Assembly: GCA_040905865.1 (NCBI GenBank)
Contig: JBBDQU010000085.1
Location: forward strand, 48,295 to 112,294
Length of the DNA stretch: 64,000 nt
Direction: 5' to 3'
Source of the DNA: Alphaproteobacteria bacterium
GTDB lineage: Bacteria > Pseudomonadota > Alphaproteobacteria > UBA8366 > GCA-2717185
Shown: piece by piece, positions 14,791 through 37,443 of the stretch
How positions within the stretch are numbered: position 1 is the first letter of the stretch
Layout: each line of letters starts with the position of its first letter
Notes under the pieces: generated by a model
Seen by the model: only the letters and a program-made list of their open reading frames with translations
Database searches by the model: none
What the model was told of the DNA's origin: nothing
Translations under genes and position numbers: made by a program

Positions 14791-14856
14791 CGTCGGATTA
14801 GATTCGGAATACGGCCGTTACCGTAACGCTACGGCGCCCGCCCCTCTATACCAGAT

Positions 14857-15705: not shown

Positions 15706-15729
15706 GATTTCCTCATATGAACGGGCAAA

Positions 15730-16908: not shown

Positions 16909-16911
16909 CGG

Positions 16912-17664: not shown

Positions 17665-17855
17665 TACCAATAGATCTCTTCAAACTGTTTCCAACCGGGA
17701 ACCGGGCCGGAGCATGCCGTATATTTCGCATGCGACGGTACCGGCATCAATACATGCGATCCGCAAACCCATTCGTTAACCATGCTGCTTCAGGATCTGT
17801 TAACGCGCGTGAACGATACTGCAAAAATCCATCTGAATTCATCAGGAACCCGATC

Positions 17856-20571: not shown

Positions 20572-23238
20572 TCAACCCGCCGCCAGCAATGCCTGAAAAT
20601 CACCATTCGCATTGCGCAGTTCCTCAAACGTGCCGGTTTCAGCGATACGTCCGGATTTCAATACCATAATATGGTCGAAATGTTTTGCATCCGAAACACG
20701 ATTGAGAATCCAGATAACACCCTGCCCTTCGCGCTCCTGAAGTATATTTTCCATGATCCTGTTCTGACTGACGGCGTCGAGATTCGCCGACGCCTCGTTC
20801 AGTAGCAGTATATCCGGGTGCCGGACCAGACCGCGCGCGATTGCCAGTTTCTGGCGCTGGCCCTGCGACAGCCTGCCGCCGCCGTTGCCCGCCGGAAATG
20901 CGAGGCCCGCGGAAACCACGATTTCCCGCAAATCCAGCTCGTCGACGATATCGCCTATCAGACGGCCGGCCTTCGCTTCAGCCTGAGCCTGTCCAAAGGA
21001 CACCTTGCCGAACAGAATATTGTCCTGCAGCGATGCGGCGGCGTTATAGGTATCGGCGTCGAAAAAGGCAATCCTGTCGCGCAGGTCCTCGGGCAGTCCC
21101 TCGGCAAAAACCCGGCGCGCCTCCAGGATCCGGGAGATCATCTGATCGTCGATCAGATCCAGGCGATGACGCGCCTGGATCAGCTTGAAAGGCAGCGAAA
21201 TGAGGCGCTGGCGGTCTGCCGGCGTCACCCCGCCGGCGCCGCGCGCCGCGCGGCCCAGAATAGCCTGAAATTCCGGCAGGTCGTCGGAACCGATAAAACT
21301 GAACTGCTCGAAAAATTCATGGCCAGGCGGCAGATCGGCAAACAGTTCCAGCATTGTCTGCGCAACCTGTTTACCCATTTCCAGGAAATCGTCGCTCAGT
21401 TTCACCTTGTCCAGAACACTCTTGATATAGTCGTTTCCGGCCAGATTCTCCGGATCGAAAGACCCGCCGATCGGCAGGCCGAACAGAATGTTTTCCGCGA
21501 CGGTCGCATTGGAATTGTATTTCTCTGGATCGAAGGGCTCGATCAGCAACGCCACGGCGGGGTCGGCCAGTCGGTCGCGAAGCGCCGAACGCGCGGCCAG
21601 TATCCGCTCGGCAATGTCCGGCTGGCGCGTCGGATCGATCACGCCGCGCAGGCCGAAACGGTATACTTCCTCGTCCATGTCGACCAGCCGCAGGATCTCG
21701 ACCAGTCGCCGTTTCAGGCCTTCCCGGTCTGCCACGCCGGCTTCGTTCAGATCGACCCAGTCCGCGTTGTAATCGAAGGGGGAATTGCCGGTCTCGATTG
21801 ACTCGGCGGGATCGATGGCGTCGCCGATTGACGGGGCGTCGGGGTCCGCCGGCCCGATCATGCGGTGTTTCAGCCCATAGAGAATGTTGTCGCCCACAGA
21901 AGCGGCCTGCAGGTAAGGGCTGGAGCCGACATAGGCGATGCGGCGGCCGGTCACGGCCTCCGGCAGTGTTGCAAGGTCGCTGCCGCCATACACAATCGTG
22001 CCGGAGGTCGGGCTGACCAGTCGCGCCAGAACGGTGCCGAGTTCGGTCTTTCCGCTGCCCCCGTCGCCGACGATGGCGGTATGCGATGCAACCGGCACTG
22101 TGAACGAAATCGCGTCCAGCGCCCGGACGCCGTCTTCGTCGGCAAGGCCTACGTTGTTGACGATCAAATTCCCCCTGATCGGCGATGGCCCGTCTTCGGG
22201 ATCCGCCGTCTGCAGTTCTTCTTCCAGCATGCCCTGCGGCTCGAACTGTTCGACCACCTGCTCGTACTTGATGCGGGCATCTTCCTTCTGCTGATACCAG
22301 GTCAGCAGCTCCTTCCACGGGCTCGCCAGGTCCTTGTAGGCATTCAGGACGGCGACCAGGGCGCCGACCGTGAGGCTGCCCTGAATGACCAGATAACCGC
22401 CGATGGAAAAGAAGAAGAAAGGCGTCAGCTTGTCGATGAAATTATTGAGAAACTTGATAAAAAACTTGCGGCGATAAATTTCGTACCGGATGTCGTAAAT
22501 CGCGCCCAGGCGGTTCGTAAACCGCGATAATTCGAAGAACGATGTATCGTGCGCATGGATTTCGTTGATGCTCGAAACAGATTCGCCCAGATGGTCGGAC
22601 AGGCGGCGGACATGCTGCACACGCAGCTTGCCAAGCGCGTTCACCTTTTTCTGCAGTTTGGGAATTATGTAGCCCTGTATCGGAATCATGCCCGCCGCCG
22701 CCAGGCCGAGCGTCCAGTCCTGCAACATGATATAGCCGACGATCAGGATCAGCTGACCGCCAAAAAACAGCGGGTCGGCGAATGCAATGCCGATGAAACC
22801 GCCCAGCGGCTCGACTTCGGCCGTGATCATCGGGATGATTTCGCCTTGGCTTACCTTTTTGAAATGCGGCGTCGGGAACCGCAGGATCCGCGAATACAGC
22901 TGGTAGCGCATCCGCCGCAGCAGCCGTTCCCCGAGCCGCCCCTTGTAGACGCTGATGTAGTATTTGAACCCGCCGGTAATGAAAACCAGGCCGAGATAGG
23001 CAAAACTCAATACCATAAGATAGGTCAGCTGGCTGACATCTATCGGTATTTCAAAACCGAATATCGGTATTTCAAACGGGGGCGCCGCCCCTTCGCTCTT
23101 GATCGCCCTGTTGATGATGATTTTCGGTAGGTCGAGCGACACAAACAGAAACGGATAAAACGCCAGAATTACGATCAGCAGCGTGATCTGCTGCGGCAGA
23201 CTGTACCGCAGGATATATTTGAAAATGGATTTTTCCAT
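20572..23238 (-). CDS. Atypical ABC exporter (TMD-NBD fusion) with expanded, non-canonical NBD
   Basis: N-terminal 6-TM ABC_membrane-like region, Walker A GDGGSGKT, signature-like LSQGQ, Walker B DILLLNE, H-loop position ILNRVS. About 330 aa lie between the Q-loop and the signature motif. Confidence 0.85.
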   Translation of the reverse strand: MEKSIFKYILRYSLPQQITLLIVILAFYPFLFVSLDLPKIIINRAIKSEGAAPPFEIPIFGFEIPIDVSQLTYLMVLSFAYLGLVFITGGFKYYISVYKGRLGERLLRRMRYQLYSRILRFPTPHFKKVSQGEIIPMITAEVEPLGGFIGIAFADPLFFGGQLILIVGYIMLQDWTLGLAAAGMIPIQGYIIPKLQKKVNALGKLRVQHVRRLSDHLGESVSSINEIHAHDTSFFELSRFTNRLGAIYDIRYEIYRRKFFIKFLNNFIDKLTPFFFFSIGGYLVIQGSLTVGALVAVLNAYKDLASPWKELLTWYQQKEDARIKYEQVVEQFEPQGMLEEELQTADPEDGPSPIRGNLIVNNVGLADEDGVRALDAISFTVPVASHTAIVGDGGSGKTELGTVLARLVSPTSGTIVYGGSDLATLPEAVTGRRIAYVGSSPYLQAASVGDNILYGLKHRMIGPADPDAPSIGDAIDPAESIETGNSPFDYNADWVDLNEAGVADREGLKRRLVEILRLVDMDEEVYRFGLRGVIDPTRQPDIAERILAARSALRDRLADPAVALLIEPFDPEKYNSNATVAENILFGLPIGGSFDPENLAGNDYIKSVLDKVKLSDDFLEMGKQVAQTMLELFADLPPGHEFFEQFSFIGSDDLPEFQAILGRAARGAGGVTPADRQRLISLPFKLIQARHRLDLIDDQMISRILEARRVFAEGLPEDLRDRIAFFDADTYNAAASLQDNILFGKVSFGQAQAEAKAGRLIGDIVDELDLREIVVSAGLAFPAGNGGGRLSQGQRQKLAIARGLVRHPDILLLNEASANLDAVSQNRIMENILQEREGQGVIWILNRVSDAKHFDHIMVLKSGRIAETGTFEELRNANGDFQALLAAG

Positions 23239-23451
23239 GAACCGGCGTAACGACCTTCTGCCGCAGAAACGGTATGCCCCTCTCGAGAATACCTTACCGC
23301 AGCAGTTTGCTATGGTAAACGTTTAGAAATTGCTCATTATTGCCCGGTATCGCTGCAATATTTATGACCAATCATAAGATTCGGAACTTCCGGTTATTAC
23401 ATGATACGTGCCATAGTAGGCGCGCTGTAGCGGGGAAAAAGGGGATAGGGC

Positions 23452-24669
23452 ATGAGCGGAGACCGTCGTCCGCCACGCGTGCTGATATACAGTCATGATT
23501 CGTTCGGGCTCGGCCATCTGCGCCGATGCCGCGCCATCGCGCATGCGATGTGCGAAGAGAATGAAGACCTGTCTGTTCTGATCCTTTCGGGTTCTCCCAT
23601 TATCGGCAGTTTCGATTTCCGCTCGCGGGTGGATTTCGTGCGGGTCCCCGGGGTCATCAAACTGCGGAACGGCGAATACACCTCTCTGACGCTGCCGATG
23701 GCGATCGAGGACGCGATTGAAATGCGGGCCTCGATCATTCGACACACGGCGGAGGTCTTCGACCCCGATATCATGCTGGTGGACAAGGAGCCATTCGGCC
23801 TGCGCGGCGAACTGGCGGAAACGCTCGACGTCATGAAATCGCGCGGCACCCATGTCGTACTGGGGTTGCGTGACGTGCTGGACGATCCCAGACAGCTGAG
23901 AGCGGAGTGGAAGCGAAAGAATGCCGCCGCCGCGCTGAAGGAATATTACGACGAAATCTGGATCTATGGTCTGCCGCAGATATGCGAACCGCTGATCGGC
24001 GTGGACCTGCCGGCGTCAACGCGGCGCAAGACGACCTATACCGGTTACCTGCAACGGTTCGCCGACACCGACACCGCGTCGGAACTGCCCTTCGTGAAGC
24101 ATGGCGACCCGTTCATACTTGTTACGCCCGGCGGCGGCGGCGATGGCGAGGAACTGGTCGACTGGGTCATTCGCGCCTATGAAAGCGCCGCCTCCCTGCC
24201 GCACCGGTCGGTCATTGTGCTGGGCCCCTTCATGCAATCGGATCGCCGCGCGGAATTCATCGCCCGTGTCGACCGGTTGCCGAAGGTTGAGGCCATCACC
24301 TTCGATGCCCATCTGGAAAGCCTGATGGTCAAGGCTTTGGCGGTCGTCGCGATGGGCGGGTACAATACATTCTGCGAAATCCTGTCCTTCGACAAGCGGG
24401 CGCTGATCGTCCCGCGCACGGAGCCGCGCCAGGAACAGCTGATCCGCGCCAGCCGGGCCGCCGAGCTTGGCTTGCTGACCATGCTGCGCGGCGACGCGGA
24501 ACGCAAGGCGGATGTCATGGCAACGGCATTGCGCCATCTGCCGCAACAGAACCTGCCTTCGCACTCGGTCGTACCGGGGCTGCTCGACGGGCTGGAAAAT
24601 GTGAACATCCTGACCCGGCGCGCCCTTGAGCATCAATCCCGCCCGTCCCTGGCCCGGCAGCGCGCGTGA
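23452..24669 (+). CDS. GT-B glycosyltransferase (COG4671/GT28-C-like), copy 1
   Basis: N-terminus RVLIYSHDSFGLGHLRRCRAIAHAM, and a C-terminal ...MGGYNT..E... typical of the MurG-like GT-B C-domain. Confidence 0.75.
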   Translation: MSGDRRPPRVLIYSHDSFGLGHLRRCRAIAHAMCEENEDLSVLILSGSPIIGSFDFRSRVDFVRVPGVIKLRNGEYTSLTLPMAIEDAIEMRASIIRHTAEVFDPDIMLVDKEPFGLRGELAETLDVMKSRGTHVVLGLRDVLDDPRQLRAEWKRKNAAAALKEYYDEIWIYGLPQICEPLIGVDLPASTRRKTTYTGYLQRFADTDTASELPFVKHGDPFILVTPGGGGDGEELVDWVIRAYESAASLPHRSVIVLGPFMQSDRRAEFIARVDRLPKVEAITFDAHLESLMVKALAVVAMGGYNTFCEILSFDKRALIVPRTEPRQEQLIRASRAAELGLLTMLRGDAERKADVMATALRHLPQQNLPSHSVVPGLLDGLENVNILTRRALEHQSRPSLARQRA

Positions 24670-25906
24670 CATCGTGTCTGTTCTTTTCATTCTGAAAGGG
24701 TATCCCCGCCTTTCGGAAACCTTCATCGCCCAGGAAATCCGCGCCCTCGAACAGCGCGGAATCGAAATCGAAATCGCGTCCCTGCGACATCCCACCGATA
24801 CGCAGACCCACCCCATTCATGACGAGATCGCCGCCGGCGTCCTGTACCTGCCGGAATATCTCCATGACGCGCCTGAACGCGTACAGGCGGCACGGTCGGC
24901 TGTGCGGCAAATGCCCGGCTACGCGGCTGCCTATGCCCGCTTTCGCGCGGATTTGCGGCGCGACCCGACCCGCAACAGGATACGGCGTTTCGGACAGGCC
25001 TGCATGCTGGCGCATGAACTGCCCGCCGGCATAACCCGGCTGCACGCGCATTTTCTGCATACGCCGGCTTCGGTTGCGCGGTATGCAGCCATGATGACGG
25101 GACTGCCCTGGAGCTGTTCCGCCCATGCCAAGGATATCTGGACGACGCCGGAATGGGAAATTCGGGAAAAACTGTCGGACCTGGACTGGCTGGTCACCTG
25201 TACCGCGGCGGGGACCGAATACCTTCGCGGGCTGGCGCCGGACCCCGGCGCGGTCTCTCTGGTCTATCATGGCCTCGATTTTTCGCGATTTCCACCGCCC
25301 GGCGCGGCGCGGCCGGCGCTTGACGGATCCGGCGCGCCCGTATCCATCCTCTCTGTGGGCCGGGCCGTTGCAAAGAAGGGCTATGACGAACTCCTGACGG
25401 CGCTCGCCGGGCTGCCGGCGGAAATCAACTGGACATTCCGCCACATCGGCGGCGGACCGCTATTGCCGGCATTGCAGGAACAGGCGCGGCAGCTGTCCCT
25501 CGCCAACCGCATCGAATGGCTGGGCGCCCGGTCGCAGGACGCCGTTCTGGCCGCGCTGCGGGATGCCGACCTTTTCGTGCTGGCGAGCAAGACGACCGCG
25601 GATGGCGACCGCGACGGATTGCCGAACGTCCTGATGGAGGCGCAAAGCCAGGGTCTCGCGGTCGTCTCCACCACGGTTTCCGGTATTCCCGAACTGGTGC
25701 ATCACGGCGTGACGGGATTGCTCGTCCCGCCCGGTGATCCCGACGCCACCGCCGGGGCGCTCGAGGCGCTGATCCGGGACCCGGCCCTGCGACGGCGCCT
25801 CGGGGACGCGGGCCGCCACCGCGTCCATGCCTGTTTTTCAATGGATGACGGCGCCGATTTTTTGGCCGCGCGGTTTCGGCACGACAAGCATTCCGCCGCG
25901 GCGTAA
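24626..25906 (+). CDS. Family-4-type (GT-B) glycosyltransferase, WcaL-like
   Basis: The C-terminal ...DGLPNVLMEAQSQGLAVVST.VSGIPELV.HG.TGLLVPPGD is an E-x7-E-type GT4 motif. An alternative GTG start at 24674 would remove the 44-nt overlap. Confidence 0.8.
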   Translation: MSINPARPWPGSARDIVSVLFILKGYPRLSETFIAQEIRALEQRGIEIEIASLRHPTDTQTHPIHDEIAAGVLYLPEYLHDAPERVQAARSAVRQMPGYAAAYARFRADLRRDPTRNRIRRFGQACMLAHELPAGITRLHAHFLHTPASVARYAAMMTGLPWSCSAHAKDIWTTPEWEIREKLSDLDWLVTCTAAGTEYLRGLAPDPGAVSLVYHGLDFSRFPPPGAARPALDGSGAPVSILSVGRAVAKKGYDELLTALAGLPAEINWTFRHIGGGPLLPALQEQARQLSLANRIEWLGARSQDAVLAALRDADLFVLASKTTADGDRDGLPNVLMEAQSQGLAVVSTTVSGIPELVHHGVTGLLVPPGDPDATAGALEALIRDPALRRRLGDAGRHRVHACFSMDDGADFLAARFRHDKHSAAA

Positions 25907-27024
25907 TGCGCGTCGCATTCTATGCGCCCCTGAAGCCGCCGAATCACCCGGTTCCGTCCGGCGACCGGCGCATGGCGCGCCTGTTACTGGAAGCCATACG
26001 GCGCAGCGGCAACGACGTATCCGTCGCCTCCACGCTGCGGGCATACGACGGCGCCGGCGACACAGACAGGCAGAACCGCATTCGGCGGCGGGGCGAGGCG
26101 CTGGCGCGGCAATTCATCGAACGGAACAGGGAGAACCCGCCGGATATCTGGTTTACCTATCATCTCTATCACAAGGCGCCGGACTGGATCGGCCCCCTGG
26201 TCTGCGACGCCTTCGCCATCCCCTATATCATTGCGGAAGCCAGTATCGCCCCGAAACAGGCCGGCGGCCCCTGGACCGATGGGCTGGCTGCCGTGACCGC
26301 GGCGGTCCGTGGGGCAAGCCGTGTCATCGTCCTGAACCCGGTCGACCGCGAATGCATCGAGCCCTTCACAGGACCGGGCAGCCGGATTGTCGCGCTGCCG
26401 CCCTTTATCGATACCGGGCCGCCACGGCGGGCAGCGGCGGACCGCCAGCGGCATCGGACGACGCTGGCCGCCCGTCATGGCGTCGCGCCCACTTATGTTT
26501 GGATCGCGGTTTCCGCCATGATGCGCTTTGGCGACAAGCTGGAATCGTACCGCGTGCTCGGGCGGGTCATGCAGGGGCTGCGCGACCTGCCGCTGCGCTG
26601 GCTGGTCGCGGGCGACGGTCCGGCGCGGGCGGATGTCGAAGCGCTGCTGGGCGCCGACGTGACCTATCTGGGCGCACTGGGCCCGCACGACATGGATATG
26701 CTGCACGCGGCGGCGGATTTTGCCGTCTGGCCTGCGATGCGGGAAGCCTTCGGCATGGCCATGCTGGAGGCACAGGCGGCGGGTGCGCCGGTCATCGCCG
26801 GCCGCTCTCCCGGCGTGGCGCAGATAATCGCCGATGGCGAAACCGGCATATTGACGCCACCCGGTGACGACATGACTATGGCGGCGGCGATCCGGGCGCT
26901 GGCGAAGGATCCGGAACGACAACGCAGCATGGGACGGGCGGCAATGTTCAAGGCGGAACGTGAGCATGATATCGCGGCGGCGGCAATCGGCATCGGCCGG
27001 CTGTTGCGGGAAGCGGTGTCTTGA
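25906..27024 (+). CDS. Family-4-type (GT-B) glycosyltransferase
   Basis: N-terminus MRVAFYAPLKPPNHPVPSGDR..., C-terminus REAFGMAMLEAQAAGAPVIAG...GETGILTPPGD. The start overlaps the upstream TAA (TAATG). Confidence 0.8.
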   Translation: MRVAFYAPLKPPNHPVPSGDRRMARLLLEAIRRSGNDVSVASTLRAYDGAGDTDRQNRIRRRGEALARQFIERNRENPPDIWFTYHLYHKAPDWIGPLVCDAFAIPYIIAEASIAPKQAGGPWTDGLAAVTAAVRGASRVIVLNPVDRECIEPFTGPGSRIVALPPFIDTGPPRRAAADRQRHRTTLAARHGVAPTYVWIAVSAMMRFGDKLESYRVLGRVMQGLRDLPLRWLVAGDGPARADVEALLGADVTYLGALGPHDMDMLHAAADFAVWPAMREAFGMAMLEAQAAGAPVIAGRSPGVAQIIADGETGILTPPGDDMTMAAAIRALAKDPERQRSMGRAAMFKAEREHDIAAAAIGIGRLLREAVS

Positions 27025-27617
27025 CGATCCTTGCCGTCGTGCGGCACGGCCCGACCCACTGGAACGAAACCGGCATCGTACAGGGCCGCAGCGACATCCC
27101 GCTGAGCGAAACCGGCCGGGCCCTGGTTCGCACGTGGCGTCCCCCGGTGGCGTTTACCGAATACGAATGGGTCTCCAGCCCGCTGCTGCGCGCCGTCGAA
27201 ACCGCAACGATCCTGCGCGGTTCACCGCCGCCCACCGACCATCGCCTGGTCGAAATGGACTGGTCCGAATGGGAAGGCATGTCCCTGCCGGACCTGCGGG
27301 CGCAGATGGGCAACCTCATGAAAGCCTGGGAAGCCAAGGGACTCGATTTCCGTGCGCCCGGCGGCGAAAGTCCGCGCGACGTGCAGGACCGGCTGCGACC
27401 GTTTCTGGCGGAACGGGCCCGCGCCGGTACGCCCACAGTCATGGTCTGCCACAAGGGCGTGATCCGGGCGCTTTACGCCATGGCGGTTGCCTGGGACATG
27501 ACCGACAAGCCGCCGGAAAAGCTGCTCGACAATTGCACCCATACGTTCCGGCTCGACCCCCACGGGGCGCCTGTCCCGCACCAGTTGAACATCCCCATGA
27601 CAACGCCGGAAGTATGA
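27021..27617 (+). CDS. Histidine phosphatase (phosphoglycerate-mutase-like) family protein
   Basis: Catalytic RHG motif in ILAVVRHGPTHWN, plus a later ...VCHKGVIRAL... (second His). TTG start within a TTGA overlap. Confidence 0.85.
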   Translation: MTILAVVRHGPTHWNETGIVQGRSDIPLSETGRALVRTWRPPVAFTEYEWVSSPLLRAVETATILRGSPPPTDHRLVEMDWSEWEGMSLPDLRAQMGNLMKAWEAKGLDFRAPGGESPRDVQDRLRPFLAERARAGTPTVMVCHKGVIRALYAMAVAWDMTDKPPEKLLDNCTHTFRLDPHGAPVPHQLNIPMTTPEV

Positions 27618-28774
27618 ACGGGCGAGGCGGCCGCGTGATGTTCTATGTCCAGCATCTGCTGGGCGTCGGTCACCAGGTTCGCGCGGCGGCAATAACGCGG
27701 GCGATGCAGGCACGCGGTATGGACGTGCATTATGTGTCGGGCGGCTTCGACGAAGCCGGACAGGACCTTGGCGGCGCGCGGCGCCTGCAGCTTCCGCCGG
27801 CGCGCACGGCGGATGCGGGTTTCAGCACATTGCTGGACGCCGCCGGACAGCCGGTCGACGCCGCCTGGGAAGACAAGCGCCGCCGCGCCCTGCTGGAGGT
27901 TTTTGAATCGGTTTCCCCGGATCTGCTCCTGATTGAAAGCTTCCCCTTCGGCCGTCGCCGCTTCCGGTTCGAATTGTTGCCCTTGCTGGAAGCCGCCCGG
28001 GGAAAGGCCGTTATCGCGGCGTCGGTTCGCGATATCCTGGTCGAGCGGGACGACCCGGAACGGACCCGCTGGATTGTCGGCATAGCGGAATCCTTGTTCG
28101 ATGCGGTTATTGTCCACGGCGATCCCGGCATCGTTGAATTCCGCGACACCTTCGCAGGCGCGGACGCCATCGAACATCTGATCCGGTATTCCGGTTACGT
28201 GACCGCGGCGGCGGCCCGAAATCGGCGGCGGCGAACAAATACCGTCCTTGTTTCGGCGGGCGGCGGCGCGGTCGGCGGGACGCTGCTGCGCACGGCCATT
28301 GCAGCGCGGCCGCTCACGCGACTGGCGGACGCGCCGTGGCGGCTGGTCACGGGACCGAATTTGCCTGAATCGGATAGAAATTCGATAACTTTGCCGGACG
28401 GCGTGACGGCTGACACTTTCATTGCGGATTTTCGCGGTACTTTAGATAAAGTTGCGGTTTCCGTAAGTCAGGCAGGATACAATACCGTCATGGATTTATA
28501 CGCGACAGCAACGCCGGCGGTACTGGTGCCGTTCAGCAGCCACGGCGAAACGGAGCAGTTTCGGCGCGCGTCCATCCTTGCGGAACGCGGGCATTTCCAG
28601 CTTGTCCCGGAACCGCAGCTGACGGCGGAAACCCTGGCCCGGGCCATCGACCGGGCCCTTGTCGCGCCCCCGCCGGATCCGTCCGGCGTCGATTTCAACG
28701 GCGCCGCCAATACCGCCGATATTGTTGCCTCCCTCATTGCCGACCGGCCCGCCCCGCCCCCGCTGCCGAACTGA
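27614..28774 (+). CDS. GT-B glycosyltransferase (COG4671/GT28-C-like), copy 2
   Basis: N-terminus MFYVQHLLGVGHQVRAAAITRAM is paralogous to the N-terminus of the 23452 gene. C-terminus ..SQAGYNTVMD... ATGA coupling at 27614-27617. The ORF track starts earlier, at 26960. Confidence 0.75.
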   Translation: MNGRGGRVMFYVQHLLGVGHQVRAAAITRAMQARGMDVHYVSGGFDEAGQDLGGARRLQLPPARTADAGFSTLLDAAGQPVDAAWEDKRRRALLEVFESVSPDLLLIESFPFGRRRFRFELLPLLEAARGKAVIAASVRDILVERDDPERTRWIVGIAESLFDAVIVHGDPGIVEFRDTFAGADAIEHLIRYSGYVTAAAARNRRRRTNTVLVSAGGGAVGGTLLRTAIAARPLTRLADAPWRLVTGPNLPESDRNSITLPDGVTADTFIADFRGTLDKVAVSVSQAGYNTVMDLYATATPAVLVPFSSHGETEQFRRASILAERGHFQLVPEPQLTAETLARAIDRALVAPPPDPSGVDFNGAANTADIVASLIADRPAPPPLPN

Positions 28775-28776
28775 CC

Positions 28777-29553
28777 ATGCCCGCACAATTGTATGCCCAT
28801 AATCCGGCGAACTGGTCGGACCTTACCGCGGAATTCGATGCCTGGGCGGCCGCGGGCAGACAGGCAGACTTATGGTGGCGCGACGATGACGCCACCGTTC
28901 CCGGACCCGCGCTGGACCGGCTGCTGAAGACTGCGGATTCGCGGCCCCTGTCGCTTGCCGTAATTCCGTCCGGCGCCACAAGGGAGCTTGTTCGATTCGT
29001 CGACGACAATCCCCATGTTGCCGTCCTGCAGCACGGCTATGCCCATGCGAACCACGCACCGGACGGCGAGAAGAAATCGGAATTCGGCGACCATCGGCCC
29101 CTGCGGACGATGCTGCCGGAGATCGTGGAAGGCCGGAAGCGGCTGGCCGGCCTGTTCGGCAACCGGTTTCTGTCCGTCTTCGTACCGCCCTGGAACCGGA
29201 TAGCCGATCCCGTCGCGGCGGAGCTGGGCGCATGCGGCGTGCGGGCCATATCCGCCTTCGGGCGGCGCAAGCCCGGATCCGTCCCCCGGCGGCTCAATTG
29301 CCACGTCGACATTGTGAACTGGCGCGGCAATCGGGGTTTTCTGGGCGCCGGGCCGGTACTGGACACGCTGGTCAGGCTACTGGCGGAAATTCGAACCGGT
29401 GCCCCGGAAGATGCGGAACCTGTCGGGCTGCTGACGCATCACCGCGACCATGACGACGCCGGCTGGCGCTTTCTGGAAGACCTGTTCTCGGTTTCGACGG
29501 ACCATCCCGGCGCGCGCTGGATGCCCGCGGCCACGGGGATCGCCGATGGATAG
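28777..29553 (+). CDS. Polysaccharide-deacetylase-like protein (divergent)
   Basis: ..LWWRDDDAT.. (Asp-rich motif) and ..VLQHGYAHANH.. (His cluster) resemble NodB-like/divergent deacetylase families. Assignment is tentative. Confidence 0.5.
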   Translation: MPAQLYAHNPANWSDLTAEFDAWAAAGRQADLWWRDDDATVPGPALDRLLKTADSRPLSLAVIPSGATRELVRFVDDNPHVAVLQHGYAHANHAPDGEKKSEFGDHRPLRTMLPEIVEGRKRLAGLFGNRFLSVFVPPWNRIADPVAAELGACGVRAISAFGRRKPGSVPRRLNCHVDIVNWRGNRGFLGAGPVLDTLVRLLAEIRTGAPEDAEPVGLLTHHRDHDDAGWRFLEDLFSVSTDHPGARWMPAATGIADG

Positions 29554-30064
29554 CCTGTCCCTGCGGTATCCGGCGCGCAGCCTCTATGGCGATTACCTGC
29601 GCGCCCTGGTCGGCGTCGTGATCCTCGGCACGCCGTTTTTCTATGCCGGGAGCAGCCCGGTTGTCGCGACGATTCTCGGTTCGCTGCTGCTGCTATTTGT
29701 CGGCTTCGGCGTGCGGACCTATCTTCGTCAGATCACCACGATCAGCGTTTCTCCGGACGCCATCGCCACAATCGGCCCCTTCGGCAAACGCATTGCATGG
29801 GACGATATCAGCCGTGTCGACCTGAAATATTTCTCCACGCGACGGGAAAAATCCGCAAGACGCGGCGACGGTTGGATGCAGATGAAGATCTGCGGTCCCA
29901 CGGGGTGTATGCAGCTTGATTCGTCTTTGCCACAATTTAACGATCTTGCCGCTAGAGTTGCCGCGGCGGCATTCCGGAACGGGGCGGAGATGACGGATAC
30001 AACGGTGGAGAACTTCACGACGCTTGGCGTTACCGTGACGTTCCCGGAAGAGGCTACAGAATGA
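29546..30064 (+). CDS. Small membrane protein (2 TM plus cytoplasmic domain), unknown function
   Basis: Two hydrophobic helices ([13 protein letters not shown]..., [18 protein letters not shown]) are followed by a soluble ~100-aa tail. It overlaps both neighbours: 8 nt upstream and ATGA downstream. Confidence 0.6.
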
Positions 30065-31959
30065 CAACGGCGAACAATCTCCTTTCCGTCGAGAACCTGA
30101 AGATCAATTTCAGGATCCCGAATGGCGAGGTTGCGGCGGTCAGGGATGTGTCTTTCCGGATCATGCCCGGCTCCACGGTCGCGCTTGTCGGTGAATCGGG
30201 CTCGGGAAAATCGGTCATCTCGCAGGCCATCATGGGCATCCTGCCCAAGGCCGCGGAAATTGCCGGCGGCCGGATCATGTTCAACGATCCGGCCAGGCCG
30301 GGCGAACCCGTCGATATCGCGGCGATGGATCCGGCGCGCGCGGAAATGCGGGCGATCCGCGGCGACCGCATTTCGATTATCTTCCAGGAGCCCATGACAT
30401 CGCTGTCGCCGCTGCACACGGTCGGCGACCAGATCAGCGAGGCCCTGCACCTGCACCGGTCCTGTTCGAAGCCGGAGGGCCAGGAGCTGACCCGGGAAAT
30501 GCTGCGCCTGGTCGGCTTTCCCGACCCCGCCCGTGCGTTGCGGACCTACCCGTTCGAACTGTCCGGGGGATTGCGCCAGCGGGCCATGATTGCGATGGCG
30601 CTGATCTGCCGCCCCGTCCTGCTGATCGCGGATGAACCGACAACGGCGCTCGATGTCACCATTCAGGCGCAGATCCTGAAGCTGATCGTCGACCTGCAGG
30701 CGGAACTGGGCATGGCGGTGCTGATGATCACCCATGATCTGGGCGTCGTCGCCAACATGGCCGACGAGATCGTCGTCATGTATCATGGCGAGGTCATGGA
30801 ATCGGGGACGCTCGACGATATTTTCCGCCATGCGCAGCATCCCTACCTGAAGGCGCTGCAGCACGCGGTGCCCCGCTTCGACATGAAACCGGGCGAAAGG
30901 CTGACCCCGATCCGGGGGATTGAACCGGCGCGCGGATTCCTGCACGAGGCGAAGAAACCCTGGCCGGACGGCGCGGACGCGGCTGGGCCGTTGCTCAAGG
31001 TGGAAAACCTGCGCAAGGAATACGTCATCCGCAAGAGCGGCTGGTTCGGTTCGGACGACGCGAGCCGGATCGTCGCCGTCGACGATGTGAGTTTCGAGAT
31101 CACCCGCGGCGAATGCCTTGGACTCGTCGGCGAGAGCGGCTGCGGGAAAACCACCCTGTCGAAGATGCTGATGCGGGCCGTGACCGCCGATAGCGGCGCC
31201 GTTTCGTTCAACGACCACGGCCACCTGATCGACGTGCTGGGCCTGAGCAAGGAAGCGTTGAGCCCTTTCCGCCGGAAGATGCAGTTTATCTTCCAGGACC
31301 CCTATTCTTCGCTGAACCCCCGGATGACCGTATTCGACATCATTACCGAACCGCTGGTCATCCATGACATCGGCGACGAGGCCAGCCGGCGCAACAGCGC
31401 CCGGGAACTGATGAATCTGGTCGGGCTGGATGTCCGGCACCTGAACCGCTACCCGCACAGCTTTTCAGGCGGGCAGCGGCAGCGCATCGGCATCGCCCGC
31501 GCGCTGGCCCTGCAGCCGGACCTGCTGATCTGCGACGAGCCTGTATCGGCGCTCGATGTGTCGGTGCAGGCGCAGGTGTTGAATTTGCTGAAGGACCTGC
31601 AAAGCGAGCTTGGCCTGACCTATCTGTTCATTTCGCACAATCTGGCGGTGGTCGACTATATCGCGGATCGGATCGCCGTGATGTGCCAGGGCCGGCTTGT
31701 CGAAACGGCGCCCTGCGCGGAACTGTTCCGCAACCCGGTGCATCCCTATACGAAGGCATTGCTGCTCGCGGTGCCGGATCCGAACCCGGATAATTTGCTG
31801 GACTTTTCAGCCATCCTGGAAGACCGCGCCTCGGCGCCATCCGCCTGGCCGGCCCCGTTTACGGAAAACGGTGTCGATCGGCCGATCCTGCGCAGTATCG
31901 GCGCCGGTCACGCGGTGCGCGTCCTGCCCGACGCCGATCTTGGAACGTGGATGTCATGA
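30061..31959 (+). CDS. Fused double-NBD ABC ATPase (DppD/DppF, YejF-like)
   Basis: Two complete NBDs: GESGSGKS...LSGGLRQR...[12 protein letters not shown] and GESGCGKT...FSGGQRQR...[12 protein letters not shown]. Confidence 0.92.
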
Positions 31960-33875
31960 GATACTGGTTGAAACGCAGCGCAATTGCGATTGCCGCGATT
32001 ATCATGCCTGTGGTTGGCGCCGCCGCCATGACCTATACGGAAACGCCGGGCCTGGCGCCAATGGTGGAAAGCGGCGACCTGCCGCCTGTGGCAGAGCGGC
32101 TGCCGCAGGTTCCGCTGGTCGCGCCGATGAACAAGCCAGGCCAGACGATCGGACGGCATGGCGGCGCTATAAATACCATCATGGCCAGCGCCAAGGATGT
32201 CCGGCTGATGGTGGTTTACGGCTATGCCCGGCTGGTAAAATACGGCCGGGACCTGGAACTGGCGCCCGACCTGCTGGAACGGATCGATATCGAAGAGGGC
32301 CGGTCCTTCACGATGCATCTGCGGCCGGGCCATAAATGGTCGGACGGTGAACCGTTCACGACCGAGGATTTCCGGTATTACTGGGAAGATGTCGCCAATA
32401 ACGAGTTTCTGTCGCCGACAGGGCCGACCACGGTCCTGCGTGTCGGAACCGAATTGCCGAAAGTCACCATTATCGACGCCACGACCGTTCGCTACGAATG
32501 GTCGAAGCCCAACCCGGCCTTTCTGCCGGCGCTCGCCAGCGCCACGCCGCTGTATATCTACCGTCCGTCACATTACCTGAAGCAGTTCCACCGGCGCTAC
32601 GTCGATGAAACGAAACTGAACGAAATGGCCCTGGAACAGGGCCAGCGGAACTGGGCAGCCCTGCATAACAAGGAAGACCACCAGTACCGTAACCAGAACA
32701 TAAAACTGCCGTCCCTGCAGCCCTGGATCAATACGACGGAAGGCCCGGCGGAACGATTCGTCTTCACGCGTAACCCGTATTACCACAAGGTCGATCCGGG
32801 CGGCCGGCAACTGCCCTATATCGACAGCGTCGTGATGAATATCGCCAGCGGCAAGATCATTCCGGCCAAGGTCGGTACCGGTCAGTCCGACCTGCAGGCG
32901 CGCTACCTGCGCTTCGACAACTTCACCTTCCTGAAACGAAACGAGAAGAAAAGCGGCTATTCGACCTATCTGTGGCGTATCGCCAAGGGGTCCCACCTGA
33001 CCCTGTTTCCCAATCTGAACGCCAACGACCCGGTCTGGCGCAAACTGTTGCGAGATGTGCGGTTCCGCCGGGCGATTTCGATGGGGATCAATCGCCACGA
33101 ACTGAATCAGGTGATTTACTACGGGCTTGCGCTGCCGGCGCAGAATACCGTGCTGCCGGAAAGCCCCCTGTTCAAGGAGGAGTATCAGAAGGCCTGGGCG
33201 CAGTATGACATCGCGGCCGCGAACCGGCTGCTGGACGAAATCGGCCTGACCGGCCGTGACCACCGCGGCATCCGCCTGCTGCCCGACGGACGGCCGCTGG
33301 AAATCATCGTCGAATCGACCGGCGAAAGCACCGAGGAAGCGGATGTCCTGGAACTGATGACGGACAGTCTGGCGCTGGCCGGCGTCAAGCTGCTGACCAA
33401 ACCGTCGCAGCGCGAGGTCATGCGCAACCGCATCTATGCGGGCGACACCATCATGGCGATCTCTTCGGGCCTCGAAAACGGTGTCCCGAATGCGGATATG
33501 GACCCGGAAAATCTCGCGCCGATCCACCAGATCCATTACCAGTGGCCGAAATGGGGCCAGCACGCCGAAACCATGGGCCGGATGGGCGAACCCGTTGACC
33601 TGCCGGCGGCCGCCCGGCTGGTCGAGCTGCGCAAGCAATGGTACCGGTCCACCAATACCGCCGACCGCCGGAAAATCTGGCACGAGATGCTCGCGATCAA
33701 TGCCGAACAGGTCTTCACCATCGGCCTGATTTCGGGCGTGCTGCAGCCGGTCGTCGTGCGGGACACGCTGCGGAACGTTCCCCAGAAAGGCATCTACAAC
33801 TGGGATCCCGGTGCGCATTTCGGAATCTACGAGCCCGACAGTTTCTGGTTCCTCGAAGAAACCGCAGGCAGATAG
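31956..33875 (+). CDS. ABC substrate-binding protein, family 5 (peptide/opine/nickel type, YejA-like size)
   Basis: Signal peptide [24 protein letters not shown], 639 aa, SBP_bac_5-like body. ATG 31956 overlaps the upstream TGA (ATGA). Confidence 0.85.
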
Positions 33876-33891
33876 GGCAGGGCACAGCGGA

Positions 33892-34890
33892 ATGTTTGGG
33901 TACATCATCCATCGACTACTCGTCATGATCCCGACGCTGATCGTTATCAGCGCGCTGGTCTTCATTATAATCCAGCTGCCGCCCGGGGATTATTTCACCA
34001 CCTATATGAACGAGCTGCAAAGCCGCGGCGAAGCCGTCGATGCGGAAAAACTTGAATTCATCAAGGAGCAGTACGGCTTCGGCAAACCGATGTGGGAACA
34101 GTATTTCGTCTGGGTCTTCGGCCTGCTGCAAGGCGATCTTGGCTATTCCTTCGAGTTCAGCCGTCCGGTTTCGGAAGTCGTCGGCGACCGGCTCGCTCTC
34201 AGTTTCATTGTCTCGTTCACAACGATCCTCTTCACCTGGATCGTGGCCTTTCCCATCGGCGTCTATTCCGCCGTCCGGCAGTACAGTATCGGCGATTACA
34301 GCCTGACCTTCCTCGGCTTTCTCGGCCTGGCGACGCCGAACTTCCTGCTGGCGCTGGTGCTGCAATGGCTGGCCTACAGTTATTTCGGCACGTCGATCGG
34401 CGGCCTGATGGACCCGGAATACATCGACCAGCCCTGGACCATGGGCAAGTTCCTGTCCGTGATGGAGCATCTCTGGGTGCCGGTCCTCGTCATCGGCACA
34501 TCGGGCACGGCCGGCATGATCCGCCGGCTGCGCGCCAACCTGCTGGACGAACTGCACAAGCAGTACGTCACCACGGCGCGCGCCAAGGGCCTGCCGCCCG
34601 GCAGGGCGCTGGTAAAATACCCGCTGCGCATGGCGCTGAATCCCTTCATCGCCGATATCGGCAACCTGCTGCCGGAAGTCATTTCAGGGGCGGCGATCGT
34701 GTCCATCGTGCTGTCGCTGCCGACCACCGGCCCGATGCTGCTGAACGCGCTGCAGAGCCAGGACATGTACCTCGCCGGGTCCTTCCTGATGTTCCTGGCG
34801 ACGCTGACCGTGATCGGGACGCTGTTATCCGACCTGGCGCTTGCGATGCTGGATCCGCGAATCCGGCTTGGCGGAGGAGGCACGCGATGA
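33892..34890 (+). CDS. ABC permease (DppB/YejB-like)
   Basis: N-terminus MFGYIIHRLLVMIPTLIVISALVFIIIQLPPGDY, and the EAA-type loop ..YVTTARAKGLP... Confidence 0.9.
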   Translation: MFGYIIHRLLVMIPTLIVISALVFIIIQLPPGDYFTTYMNELQSRGEAVDAEKLEFIKEQYGFGKPMWEQYFVWVFGLLQGDLGYSFEFSRPVSEVVGDRLALSFIVSFTTILFTWIVAFPIGVYSAVRQYSIGDYSLTFLGFLGLATPNFLLALVLQWLAYSYFGTSIGGLMDPEYIDQPWTMGKFLSVMEHLWVPVLVIGTSGTAGMIRRLRANLLDELHKQYVTTARAKGLPPGRALVKYPLRMALNPFIADIGNLLPEVISGAAIVSIVLSLPTTGPMLLNALQSQDMYLAGSFLMFLATLTVIGTLLSDLALAMLDPRIRLGGGGTR

Positions 34891-36059
34891 CCGATTCGCC
34901 AATTCCCCATTACGTCAACAAGGCCGAATTCGACCCGAATACGGTCGTCACCCTGTCGCCGGAGCAGGAACGCTTCTACATGGCGTCGCAGTGGCGGCTG
35001 ATGTGGTGGAAGCTGAAGCGCCACAAGCTGGCCGTCGTCAGCGGCATCTTCCTGCTGCTGGTCTATCTGTCGATCGTGATCAGCGAGATCCTGGCGCCCT
35101 ACAACCTGCATGCCCGCAATACCGAATACCTGTATGCGCCGCCGCAATCGGTGCACCTGTTTCATGAAGGCAGCTTCGTCGGCCCCTTTGTCTATGGCAT
35201 GACGCCCAGCCTCAACATGGAACAGCTGCAATGGACCTATGCGGAGGATACCTCGCGCGTGCAGCCGATCCGGTTTTTCTGCACCGCCAATGATTACAAT
35301 GGCGCGACGTACGAATTCTGGGGCCTGTTCCCCGCCAGTTTCCACCTGTTCTGTCCGGCGGCGGGCCAGCAGCTCTTCCTGCTGGGCACCGACCGGCTGG
35401 GCCGCGACGTGCTGAGCCGCATCCTCTACGGCGCGCGGATATCGCTCACCGTCGGGCTGATCGGCATAACGATCAGCTTCGTCATGGGGCTGACCATCGG
35501 CGGGCTTGCCGGGTATTACGGCGGCATGGTCGATACCGTCGTGCAGCGCATCATCGAAATCATCCGCTCCTTCCCGTCCCTGCCGTTATGGATGGCGCTG
35601 TCCGCGATCCTGCCGGTGACCTGGAGTCCGATCCTCGTCTTCGCCGGCATTACCGTCATCCTCGGCATGCTCGACTGGCCGGGGCTGGCGCGCGCGGTGC
35701 GGTCCAAGTTGCTGGCGCTGCGCGAGGAGGATTTCTGCACCGCCGCCGAACTGATGGGCGCCAGGCCGGGCCGGATCATCGGGCGGCACCTGCTGCCCAG
35801 CTTCATGAGCCATCTGATCGCCTCCGCGACCCTGTCGATTCCGAGCATGATCCTGGGCGAGACGGCGCTGAGCTTCCTTGGCCTCGGGCTGCGGCCGCCG
35901 ATCACCAGCTGGGGCGTGCTGCTGAACGAGGCGCAGAACATCAACGTGGTCGCGCTGTATCCCTGGCTGATGTACCCGGTCGTGCCGGTCATCCTGATCG
36001 TGCTGGCCTTCCAGTTCTTCGGCGACGGGTTGCGCGACGCCGCCGACCCCTACAAGTAA
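34887..36059 (+). CDS. ABC permease (DppC/YejE-like)
   Basis: ..LLGTDRLGRDVLSRILYGARISL.. and ..FCTAAELMGARPGRII..HLLP.. are typical of DppC-type permeases. ATGA coupling at 34887. Confidence 0.9.
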   Translation: MTDSPIPHYVNKAEFDPNTVVTLSPEQERFYMASQWRLMWWKLKRHKLAVVSGIFLLLVYLSIVISEILAPYNLHARNTEYLYAPPQSVHLFHEGSFVGPFVYGMTPSLNMEQLQWTYAEDTSRVQPIRFFCTANDYNGATYEFWGLFPASFHLFCPAAGQQLFLLGTDRLGRDVLSRILYGARISLTVGLIGITISFVMGLTIGGLAGYYGGMVDTVVQRIIEIIRSFPSLPLWMALSAILPVTWSPILVFAGITVILGMLDWPGLARAVRSKLLALREEDFCTAAELMGARPGRIIGRHLLPSFMSHLIASATLSIPSMILGETALSFLGLGLRPPITSWGVLLNEAQNINVVALYPWLMYPVVPVILIVLAFQFFGDGLRDAADPYK

Positions 36060-36068
36060 GGGGCCGGG

Positions 36069-37424
36069 TTAACGCCCGACGAGCACGACGGTATCGACAG
36101 GGTTTTCGACGCCGGCGATGCCCTCGGCCCGCCGCGCGAGGCAGGGGGCTGGCGGCGTATAGCCCTGGCTCTGCGCGAGCGCATAGGATTCGCCCGTCGT
36201 CAGGGCCGTGGTCCGCGCCGACCGGTTATGTTTTTCCAGCTTGGCGCAGAGGTTCACCGGGTCGCCGATCACCGTGTATTCCAGCCGCGTTTCATCGCCG
36301 ACCGCGCCGAACACGATCCGGCCGGTGACGACCGCCATGCCGATTTCCACCGGCTTGCGGCCCGCCGCGACGCGGTCCGCCCGCCAGACGATGAAGGCCT
36401 TATGCAGGTCGTCGACTGCGCGCATGGCGTCGGCGGCATAGGTATCGCTGGGCAGCACCGCGCCGAAGGTCGCCAGGATTCCGTCGCCCAGGAACTTGTC
36501 GATATTGCCGCCATGCGCCTGGATCACCGGCACCATCCGCGATTCATACTCGGTCAGCAGGGCGATGAGATCCGAAGGCGCCAACTCGTTCGACAGCGCG
36601 GTGAAACCGCGGATATCGGTCATCAGGATGGCGGCTTCGCGGGCCTCGCCCTGCCCGGGCCGGATCCGGGTGGCCGAATGGGTGATCTTGTCGGCGATCT
36701 CCGGCGAGAAGAATCGCGCCAGGTCCTTCGCCGCAGCCGCCTCGATCACCGACCGTTCGAGCAGCCGCCGCGCGCGGTACAGCGCGACCGACAGGATCGC
36801 GGTGACGATCAGGATGGAAATGATCTTGTCGAATTCCGCGCCGAGCAGGATGGCGTTCGAGGTCATATAGGCGACGTAGTCGCGCGTGATCATGTTGTCG
36901 TGCGGGTCGACGGTAATCACATAGCCGACCATCAGCAGCCAGCCCCCCGCGGCGACCAGCCCGGCAAGGATGACATAGCGCGCCTCGAACCGCAGCGCCC
37001 GCAGCACGATGAAGATGAAGACATAGAGCAGGGTGGGCGCCTTCAGATAGAAGGATGCCGGCTGGTCGTACTGGATATGGAAGCTCCAGATCACGGTCAG
37101 CAGCAGGGAAAGGTCGGCCACCACCGACAGCGCCAGGAACCAGCCGGGCAGCCGGATGCGGTAGGACAGCCAGATCCGGAAGACGGAGAACACGAAATAC
37201 ACGGCCAGCGCGATGCCGACCGGGGTCTGCCAGGGAACCACCGTCGATGTCTTCGGCGATATCGCATACAGGGCGCCGAAGATCAGCACGACGCCGAACT
37301 GGACCCAGGCGATCAGCCGTTCGCTGGCATCCTCCTGATTCGCGATCGTTTCCCGCACCCGTTCCGGCACATTGAGGCCGCTGTCGCCGCGGTTGAAGAT
37401 AGCGGGCAGAACCGGTCGTTTCAT
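36069..37424 (-). CDS. Membrane-anchored class III adenylate/guanylate cyclase
   Basis: N-terminal ~6 TM helices, then a CHD domain: ILMTDIRGFTALS, KFLGDGILATFG, YTVIGDPVNLCAKLE. Start at ATG 37424. Confidence 0.88.
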   Translation of the reverse strand: MKRPVLPAIFNRGDSGLNVPERVRETIANQEDASERLIAWVQFGVVLIFGALYAISPKTSTVVPWQTPVGIALAVYFVFSVFRIWLSYRIRLPGWFLALSVVADLSLLLTVIWSFHIQYDQPASFYLKAPTLLYVFIFIVLRALRFEARYVILAGLVAAGGWLLMVGYVITVDPHDNMITRDYVAYMTSNAILLGAEFDKIISILIVTAILSVALYRARRLLERSVIEAAAAKDLARFFSPEIADKITHSATRIRPGQGEAREAAILMTDIRGFTALSNELAPSDLIALLTEYESRMVPVIQAHGGNIDKFLGDGILATFGAVLPSDTYAADAMRAVDDLHKAFIVWRADRVAAGRKPVEIGMAVVTGRIVFGAVGDETRLEYTVIGDPVNLCAKLEKHNRSARTTALTTGESYALAQSQGYTPPAPCLARRAEGIAGVENPVDTVVLVGR

Positions 37425-37443
37425 CCTTGGCGCTTTCGTCTGT

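Follow-up and report, generated by a model that had tools for sequence, protein, structure and literature searches.

We analyzed a stretch of 64,000 nucleotides (nt) from the genome assembly of an alphaproteobacterium (GCA_040905865.1, contig JBBDQU010000085.1, positions 48,295 to 112,294; hereafter the window, in whose own numbering all coordinates are given), in which an array of eleven plus-strand genes (g1 to g11, 23452–36059) links a block of glycosyltransferases (GTs) to an ATP-binding cassette (ABC) importer of the Opp/Dpp type. We have very little doubt that these eleven genes constitute a conserved functional operon embedded in a larger cassette. The conserved unit spans approximately 19.6–39.1 kb and is wider than the eleven genes: an earlier note on this DNA, which took the unit to run from 23452 to 36059, described genes that are real but missed the exporter, the cyclic nucleotide (cNMP)-binding protein, the cyclase, the methyltransferases and the metallo-beta-lactamase (MBL)-fold hydrolase encoded on either side of them. 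As a tentative reading, which we hold with somewhat less than even confidence, we propose that the cassette would provide for the synthesis, export and re-import of a small glycoside.

When the open reading frames (ORFs) were re-derived, each of the 11 proved to be uninterrupted and closed by one in-frame stop codon, and the ten junctions from g1 to g11 measured, in order, +4 (with the GTG start of g2 at 24674), −1 (TAATG), −4 (TTGA), −4 (ATGA), +2, −8, −4 (ATGA at 30061), −4, +16 and −4 nt, which bears out the near gap-free array described before. The ATG at 24626 that had been offered as an alternative start of g2 does not exist, the codon at this position being TTG; because the homologs of g2 begin, in an alignment, at the position of GTG 24674, the 4-nt gap between g1 and g2 is the correct reading. 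The other chosen starts are backed by the lengths of homologs (165–181 amino acids (aa) for g7 and 332 aa for g10). Junctions of 4 nt or less make up 9 of the 10 in the array, compared with 3 of the 16 between same-strand neighbors elsewhere in the window (Fisher p = 8e-4), a comparison limited by the crude heuristic, based on GC content at third codon positions, that was used to call genes outside the array. In other species, gaps of 0 nt or less were found between g6 and g7 in 29 of 40 loci, between g7 and g8 in 40 of 50, between g8 and g9 in 50 of 70 and between g10 and g11 in 49 of 63, with start codons picked heuristically; the junction between the gene for the solute-binding protein (SBP) and the following permease gene is consistently the loosest (median +18 nt). 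Overlapping stop and start codons permit translational coupling, but the fixed stoichiometry that had been read from them does not follow.

A weak consensus scan detected neither a sigma-70-like promoter nor a plus-strand terminator-like site between 29553 and 30061, the interval in which such a site would, according to the earlier note, have told against a single array; over 20–38 kb the counts of such sites were not above those in shuffled sequences, so this null result is uninformative on co-transcription rather than proof of it. A scan of the whole window against Rfam found no riboswitch and no other RNA element, and hence none that splits the array. At the distal end, the stop codon of g11 lies 9 nt from the stop of the convergent cyclase gene (36059/36069), which therefore leaves no space for a separate terminator.

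Evidence for a functional unit comes also from other genomes. We compared eight contexts anchored on the GT block, six on homologs of g6 (47–61% identity; loci L003–L005 and L086–L088) and two on homologs of g1 (approximately 68%; L089, which is the Skermanella pratensis chromosome, and L090). The array recurs in all eight together with its importer, and the genes for the exporter and the cNMP-binding protein are located divergently upstream of it. Of the trio located downstream of the array, the Methyltransf_24 methyltransferase and the MBL hydrolase are present in 6/6 and the cyclase in 5/6 of the g6-anchored loci; the sequences of L089 and L090 stop within the SBP gene or shortly behind it, which precludes scoring of the trio there. 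Furthermore, an SBP-alignment scan of species-representative genomes yielded at least 591 genome stretches with relatives of the SBP, and the best 80 of these, at 54–75% identity, come from alpha-, beta- and gammaproteobacteria, with Azospirillum, Dongia, Ferrovibrio, Motiliproteus and Marinobacterium among the hosts and marine, soil and groundwater metagenome-assembled genomes among the sources. Fifty-one SBP-anchored loci, in which the sequence upstream of the SBP gene extends over 8.6 kb or more, were scored for the content of the fetched flanks: 38 have at least two GT genes, 3 have g7 with the importer, 6 have the importer only and 4 have an orphan SBP.

The association also survives rearrangement. 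In at least five gene orders the importer stays together with g1, g2, g5, the exporter and the cNMP-binding protein, namely those of the window, of the Rhizobium type (pRL11, L044, L017 and L061), of Azospirillum (L063 and L075), of L066 and of L026; on pRL11 of Rhizobium johnstonii 3841 the order is cyclase, importer, three GTs, exporter and cNMP-binding protein, so that there the cyclase also adjoins the importer. Thus, the synteny of the GT block with the importer, which the earlier note had suggested as a check, holds in three classes of proteobacteria, and the pairing, which had been thought unusual, is in fact common, given the at least 591 stretches with SBP relatives and the more than 8000 clusters at 90% identity that form the family of g1.

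The first six genes of the array appear to encode a biosynthetic block, with neither transmembrane (TM) segments nor signal peptides predicted in g1–g6. Pfam agrees with the assignments previously made for the GTs, as it does for the fused double ATPase, the 639-aa family-5 SBP and the two permeases, and in NCBIfam neither the 11 array proteins nor the flanking gene products receive a name at the equivalog level. The products of g1 (23452–24669) and g5 (27614–28774) are GT-B glycosyltransferases resembling GT28_C (Pfam Glyco_tran_28_C, E = 5e-9 for g5) and are paralogs, with 28% identity over 356 aa. The g5 protein is weakly MurG-like, MurG being its sole sequence relative in the PDB, and a PDB sequence search with g1 found no relative. 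The g1 protein is the most conserved enzyme of the block (82–90% identity in L003–L005), and the top 120 members of its family are all at least 64% identical. The g2 (24674–25906) and g3 (25906–27024) products belong to GT4, with Pfam Glycos_transf_1 scores of 117 and 86 bits (E = 8e-34 and 3e-24, respectively) against a gathering cutoff of 26.4; the PDB relatives of g2 are sucrose-phosphate synthase, the best match, and BshA-like, PimA, PimB and MshA proteins. In L004, g1 and g2 are fused into one gene for an 818-aa protein (4655–7111 of that locus), which suggests that the two transferases act together. The second GT4 enzyme, g3, is an accessory that is missing from the Rhizobium-type variant (L002, L017, L044 and L061) and matches the Pfam family GT4-conflict weakly. 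Another accessory, g4 (27021–27617), encodes a small-molecule phosphatase of the histidine-phosphatase superfamily (His_Phos_1, E = 4e-39), the PDB relatives of which include PspA, CobC, PhoE and glucosyl-3-phosphoglycerate phosphatase. In Skermanella pratensis, an extra gene for a 327-aa protein without a confident Pfam domain (14284–15267 of L089) is located between the phosphatase gene and g5, one among several lineage-specific additions to the biosynthetic block.

The last gene of the block, g6 (28777–29553), did not match any Pfam or NCBIfam model even at E ≤ 5, Polysacc_deac_1 included, and a PDB sequence search likewise found no relative. An AlphaFold (AF2) model built with 53 homologs (pLDDT 93, pTM 0.90) nevertheless retrieved, in a Foldseek search of the PDB, a top 40 made up of CE4 esterases and deacetylases with only three exceptions, at probability 1.00 and with target-length-normalized TM-scores of up to 0.68; the exceptions are the second-ranked match, a chain from a viral capsid turret, a divergent member of the polysaccharide deacetylase family (DUF610) and ChbG. 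Residues D36-D37, H86-x3-H90, R141 and H221-H222 are invariant in the 53 homologs and were paired by eye, without structural superposition, with the CE4 motifs D-D, H-x3-H, the Arg of an R-x-P-Y-like motif and L-x-H. A protein identical to that of g6 is named 'polysaccharide deacetylase family protein' in one source. Judging from the model, g6 is a cytoplasmic deacetylase of the NodB fold that represents a divergent branch of CE4 recognizable by fold alone, and its presence in the window variant makes it probable that at least one sugar of the product is a de-N-acetylated N-acetylhexosamine.

The remaining genes specify the importer. Those from g8 to g11 encode a fused double ABC ATPase in which ABC_tran and oligo_HPY each match twice (g8, 30061–31959), a periplasmic SBP of family 5 (cluster C) with a signal peptide (g9, 31956–33875, 639 aa; SBP_bac_5, E = 7e-55), an OppB/DppB-type permease (g10, 33892–34890; BPD_transp_1 and BPD_transp_1_N) and an OppC/DppC-type permease (g11, 34887–36059; BPD_transp_1 and OppC_N); this permease pair, oligo_HPY ATPase and family-5 SBP are the components that define the Opp/Dpp (PepT, TC 3.A.1.5) family. 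The preceding gene, g7 (29546–30064), is a real conserved gene with 36 homologs that encodes a small membrane protein of 172 aa, modeled by AF2 (pLDDT 84.6) as a TM hairpin (helices 10–36 and 38–63) followed by a beta sandwich and a helix, with weak fold matches to PH domains and a weak match to bPH_6. Because g7 stays with the importer in loci without nearby GT genes (L020, L067 and L074, at approximately 7400–8100), it looks like a transporter accessory rather than a biosynthetic gene and probably encodes an accessory membrane subunit of the importer.

The relatives of the g9 protein bear on what is imported. Its closest solved relatives are 5IPW (E = 2.6e-85), SPH1118 (3.7e-68) and AgpA (4e-28), with classical peptide, nickel and opine binders trailing at approximately 1e-9 or worse over partial stretches in the same PDB search; all NCBIfam equivalog models of peptide SBPs scored far below their cutoffs for g9, and the CntD/F and CntA models gave generic matches only. 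Neither yeast extract nor tryptone elicits a response from SPH1118, which binds galacturonate (pectin) oligomers (PMC9314435). AgpA, the second relative with a defined ligand, is an alpha-galactoside binder. Because the nearest solved relatives with defined ligands bind oligosaccharides, a glycan-type ligand is likelier than peptides, and a glycan-related substrate of g9 appears the more plausible. This strengthens the proposal of the earlier note that the substrate is related to the glycoconjugate rather than being a peptide. A pairwise alignment, on which the mapping of residues depends, shows that g9 retains the stacking Trp594 of SPH1118 (= W616), Arg294 and Arg466 and has lost 3 of the 5 uronate-binding arginines (Arg57→V, Arg438→S and Arg496→E). 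Since most of these arginines are replaced, the g9 ligand appears to differ from an oligouronide; the changes would be compatible with a sugar that is neutral or cationic, for example a hexosamine that has lost its N-acetyl group. Four loci (L013, L042, L059 and L071; match at approximately 10001–11900, 57–59% identity) have an orphan SBP, for which neither an ABC ATPase nor a permease is encoded in the 10 kb to its left or right; by analogy with SPH1118, which acts in chemotaxis, these orphans may serve another transporter or a sensor.

It might be argued that co-regulation is all that unites the cassette, an ordinary peptide importer (Opp/Dpp/Yej-like) sharing a promoter and cNMP control with the GTs without any common substrate. 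All four transporter parts do belong to the PepT family, the best NCBIfam models for the g8 ATPase are GsiA and YejF (both below cutoff), and the importer can stand alone. Moreover, in insertion sequencing (INSeq) work on Rhizobium, the orthologs pRL110053-54 are listed as a PepT-family 'optAD'. Against this stand the persistence of the pairing through multiple gene orders and three proteobacterial classes, the binding of sugars by the characterized relatives of the SBP, including the lack of binding of peptide mixtures by SPH1118, and the far-below-cutoff scores of the peptide-SBP models, and we regard the explanation as very unlikely. The earlier note would have abandoned the glycan connection if the importer were found without the GT genes and shown to import peptides; the first of these was indeed observed (6 importer-only loci and 3 with g7 and the importer among the 51), but nothing shows import of peptides.

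Upstream of the array and divergent from it, on the minus strand, lies the gene for an 888-aa half-transporter exporter (20572–23238; Pfam ABC_membrane and ABC_tran) that resembles the ABCB/MsbA/ChvA group. Its PDB and NCBIfam matches, which remain far below equivalog cutoffs, comprise ABCB1/4, BmrA, MsbA, HepA, PglK and the ChvA/NdvA glucan exporter and fall in two stretches, aa ~50–460 and ~780–885, such that the nucleotide-binding domain (NBD) is split by an insert of approximately 320 aa (aa ~460–780); all relatives seen are 879–917 aa long. The motif [DE]NIL[FY]G that follows the Q-loop occurs three times, at aa 450, 582 and 739, in segments that are pairwise similar (blastp E ~3e-6), which suggests that the helical region of the NBD has been partially triplicated within the protein; the PDB sequence search found no solved relative of the insert. 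In all arrangements seen, the exporter gene is immediately followed by a gene for a stand-alone cNMP-binding protein of 151 aa (20099–20554, minus strand; Pfam cNMP_binding, E = 1.4e-18) that consists of this domain only, with no helix-turn-helix and no effector domain.

The class of this exporter invites another view of the locus, in which the GT-B enzymes glycosylate a lipid of the inner membrane, the MsbA-like protein flips the resulting envelope glycolipid or glycoconjugate, and the importer recovers shed head-groups or a loosely related nutrient. MsbA and PglK are among the best family matches of the exporter, the g2 relatives PimA and PimB and the g5 relative MurG are enzymes acting on lipid acceptors, and in the window a hopanoid-type gene set is located 3–10 kb upstream. 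We consider this view quite unlikely, however, for the hopanoid genes are outside the conserved cassette in other genomes, the cassette has no acyltransferase or lipid-synthesis gene, and it is difficult to see why a static lipid should go along with a dedicated high-affinity SBP importer that has stayed beside the GTs in five rearrangements. Pfam scans of the 18 cassette genes, supplemented for the Methyltransf_24 ORF by an NCBIfam scan and its homologs, detected none of the domains of lipid-carrier loci (priming polyprenyl-phosphate transferase, Wzx/Wzy, Wzm/Wzt, Wza/Wzc and chain-length or OPX proteins); because the priming transferase, Wzx/Wzy and OPX genes are not in the cassette, assembly would be expected to proceed without a lipid carrier.

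The right part of the cassette, also on the minus strand, begins with the gene for a class III adenylate/guanylate cyclase that is convergent with g11 (36069–37529; Pfam Guanylate_cyc at aa 297–438). The longest ORF overlaps the next gene by 86 nt (37444–37529) and homologs of the cyclase are 450–463 aa long, for which reasons the true start probably lies downstream of 37529. This next gene (37444–38304) encodes a Methyltransf_24 (TylF-like) methyltransferase, typed through its 65–78% identity to the PF13578 genes of L003–L005, since its own scan was against NCBIfam only and gave no match. The right edge is formed by the gene for the MBL-fold hydrolase (38301–39134; Pfam Lactamase_B_2, E = 1e-23), which has a sub-threshold match to the NCBIfam model of a cyclic nucleotide-degrading phosphodiesterase and is possibly such an enzyme. 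The left edge is a gene for a methyltransferase dependent on S-adenosylmethionine (SAM) (19571–20062, minus strand; Pfam Methyltransf_17, E = 1.4e-48) that occupies the same position in L003–L005, L086 and L088–L090. From these domain assignments, a cyclic nucleotide might be made, sensed and broken down by products of the cassette itself.

The same genes raise the question of a Pycsar-like cyclic-nucleotide anti-phage defense locus. The cyclase and the cNMP-binding protein match the PycC and Pycsar-effector models of PADLOC at the domain level, and the weak similarity of g3 to GT4-conflict could be quoted in the same sense. However, these matches span only the common cyclase and cyclic nucleotide-binding folds, and the 151-aa cNMP-binding protein has neither a TIR nor a TM effector domain. 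The 18-gene metabolic and transport cassette is found in one chromosomal arrangement across species, not in a variable defense island, and because this architecture contradicts a defense locus we rejected the possibility, which retains hardly any probability.

Collectively, we favor a model with three steps, for which gene content, conserved operon-like packing, the fold and motifs of CE4 in g6, the class of the exporter and the relatives of the SBP provide the observed basis and from which we infer the identity of the product, the direction of flow and the gating by cNMP. First, soluble cytoplasmic enzymes would assemble, independently of any lipid carrier, a small glycoside or a short oligosaccharide; the core would be the two paralogous GT28-like GT-B transferases and one GT4 enzyme, to which, in the window variant, g3 would add an extra sugar, with g4 stripping a phosphate and g6 an N-acetyl group, and the methyltransferases of the cassette may methylate the product. 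Second, the divergent ABCB/MsbA/ChvA-like exporter would send the product to the periplasm or outside, and its cNMP-binding partner, together with the cyclase and perhaps the MBL hydrolase, would put the export under cyclic-nucleotide control. Third, the Opp-type importer (SBP, two permeases, fused ATPase and g7) would retrieve the compound in free, modified or loaded form. The absence of TM helices and signal peptides from the enzymes and the signal peptide of the SBP speak for this scheme, as does the conservation together of biosynthetic genes, an exporter and an SBP-dependent importer, the architecture known from Cnt and siderophore loci. A version centered on a phosphorylated acceptor, with the GT4 enzyme and the phosphatase working in the manner of SPS/SPP or MshA, lost weight, given that the minimal variant of the Rhizobium type has no such phosphatase.

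Several observations weigh against this make-export-reimport scheme. Six loci have the importer without GT genes within 10 kb, in addition to the orphan SBP copies, and in Marinobacterium rhizophilum the importer is located amid unrelated genes. The Rhizobium-type variant lacks the phosphatase, the deacetylase, the second GT4 enzyme and g7, and therefore whatever is concluded from these four holds for the window variant only. The closest solved relative of g9, 5IPW, is the Thermotoga maritima 'OppA' and has no ligand; GT-B enzymes often use membrane lipids, which makes a glycolipid product possible; and the direction of flow is derived from protein classes alone. The heuristic choice of start codons in the survey of junctions from other genomes is to be counted on the same side.

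If the direction were reversed, an exogenous oligosaccharide or glycoside, for instance derived from plants or microbes, would enter, be remodeled as an acceptor and be pumped out by the ABCB exporter. The same data on the co-occurrence of importer, GTs and exporter apply to this possibility, the importer genes in the window are taken to be co-translated with those of the enzymes, no recognizable enzyme that makes a starting acceptor is encoded in the cassette, and importer-only genomes would be those of plain consumers. Nevertheless, to our knowledge there is no precedent for a salvage or remodeling pathway with four GTs fed by an Opp-type importer; the very different habitats of the hosts speak against reliance on one exogenous compound, and the extreme conservation of g1 suits a housekeeping-like endogenous pathway better. 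We therefore consider import followed by modification and export unlikely.

Among known systems, the cassette comes closest in logic to the Cnt and siderophore operons and to compatible-solute synthesis with its own re-uptake, and closest in chemistry to the Nod-factor route and to glucan export by ChvA/NdvA. The operons for staphylopine and pseudopaline (Cnt) and for siderophores combine biosynthesis, an exporter and an importer of the Opp/Nik family in one locus, implying secretion and re-uptake. The cassette is similar in that cytoplasmic enzymes, a dedicated exporter and an ABC importer with a family-5 SBP are encoded together, but its enzymes are GTs, a deacetylase and a phosphatase rather than opine or nonribosomal peptide synthetase enzymes, its exporter is of the ABCB type with a cNMP-binding partner, and no link to metals is apparent. 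With the Nod-factor system (NodC, NodB, NodA and NodIJ) it would share a carrier-free cytoplasmic oligosaccharide, CE4 de-N-acetylation and ABC export; in the cassette, however, the processive GT2 gives way to GT-B enzymes (GT4- and GT28-like), an acyltransferase is lacking, the exporter is of another class, and a dedicated importer and a cNMP module are added. Systems for compatible-solute glycosides (GgpS/GgpP with GgtABCD, SPS/SPP and GpgS/GpgP) likewise combine a GT with a phosphatase and an SBP importer salvaging leaked product; the best PDB match of g2, sucrose-phosphate synthase, and the resemblance of g4 to glucosyl-3-phosphoglycerate phosphatase point in this direction. Unlike these systems, the cassette encodes as many as four GTs along with a deacetylase and an active exporter, its phosphatase is absent from the minimal variant, and its importer belongs to the PepT family and not to CUT1.

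Among transport proteins, g9 is a clear homolog of the family-5 sugar binders (SPH1118, AgpA, Thermotoga 'Opp' and the Vibrio chitin-oligosaccharide binding protein) and shares with SPH1118 the large format of approximately 640 aa and the stacking Trp, but the systems of those proteins are catabolic and lie beside degradative genes. The exporter belongs to the same ABCB half-transporter class as ChvA/NdvA, which handles cyclic beta-1,2-glucan, and MsbA, and its cargo would, as with these, be a glycan made in the cytoplasm; it differs from them in the insert of approximately 320 aa in the NBD and in its cNMP-binding partner. None of the compared systems combines such a set of enzymes with this type of importer and a cNMP module. 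Thus, all the component families are known, but their conserved combination, that is, soluble GT-B enzymes, a CE4 deacetylase, an ABCB exporter with a cNMP-binding partner and an Opp-type importer of a sugar branch, appears to be undescribed; we found no functional study of the cassette in the searchable literature with the pRL11 locus tags, 5IPW, SPH1118 and combined terms. The only mentions found there come in passing from INSeq work on Rhizobium, in which mutants of 'optAD' were advantaged in the rhizosphere and on roots and the neighboring gene pRL110056 has its own reported phenotypes.

The only sizeable non-coding gap of the cassette, an AT-rich region of 213 bp between the exporter gene and g1 (23239–23451), presumably contains the promoters of the exporter unit as well as of the eleven-gene array. 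Within it, a near-palindromic block, GTAAACGTTTAGAA (23315–23328), has 12 of its 14 positions invariant between the window and L003–L005, with diverging flanks, and is a candidate binding site for a regulator.

Elsewhere in the window, the hopanoid-type gene set (13885–17670, minus strand) includes two squalene/phytoene-synthase-like genes (HpnC/HpnD-like), a GT2/GT21 glycosyltransferase gene and a PhyH dioxygenase gene, and a gene for a PAS-HisKA kinase (17655–19541) is located between this set and the cassette. Membership of the hopanoid-like genes in the cassette was considered and rejected, as they are absent from the conserved neighborhood in more distant genomes. A patch of low GC content at approximately 60000–62000 (0.51 compared with ~0.63–0.65 elsewhere) contains short ORFs and, at 61395–61847 on the minus strand, what resembles by eye a C-terminal fragment of an IS1595-type transposase; a small insertion was probably acquired here. 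The window was found to contain no tRNA genes.

Finally, we considered a more far-reaching version of the proposal, which we put forward as a speculation and think improbable as it stands. The cassette would represent a very widespread proteobacterial 'glyco-opine-like' system that secretes a small glycoside containing an amino sugar through cNMP-gated export, by way of the NBD with the triplicated insert, and takes it up again through the Opp-type importer; the compound would act as a shared extracellular good, a scavenger or a signal, and importer-only genomes, such as that of Marinobacterium, would be those of cheaters. If this were true, the compound would stand for a new class of metabolites secreted by bacteria, and ABC export would be subject to post-translational control by cNMP in a new manner.

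The cassette is abundant and is present in cultured, tractable bacteria, including Rhizobium johnstonii 3841, Azospirillum and Skermanella. Should the make-export-reimport scheme prove correct, these bacteria would possess a common, so far undescribed extracellular or periplasmic glycoside, a function would be provided for a large set of probably mis-annotated 'oligopeptide' transporters, and the cassette would offer a defined system for cyclic-nucleotide control of an ABC exporter.

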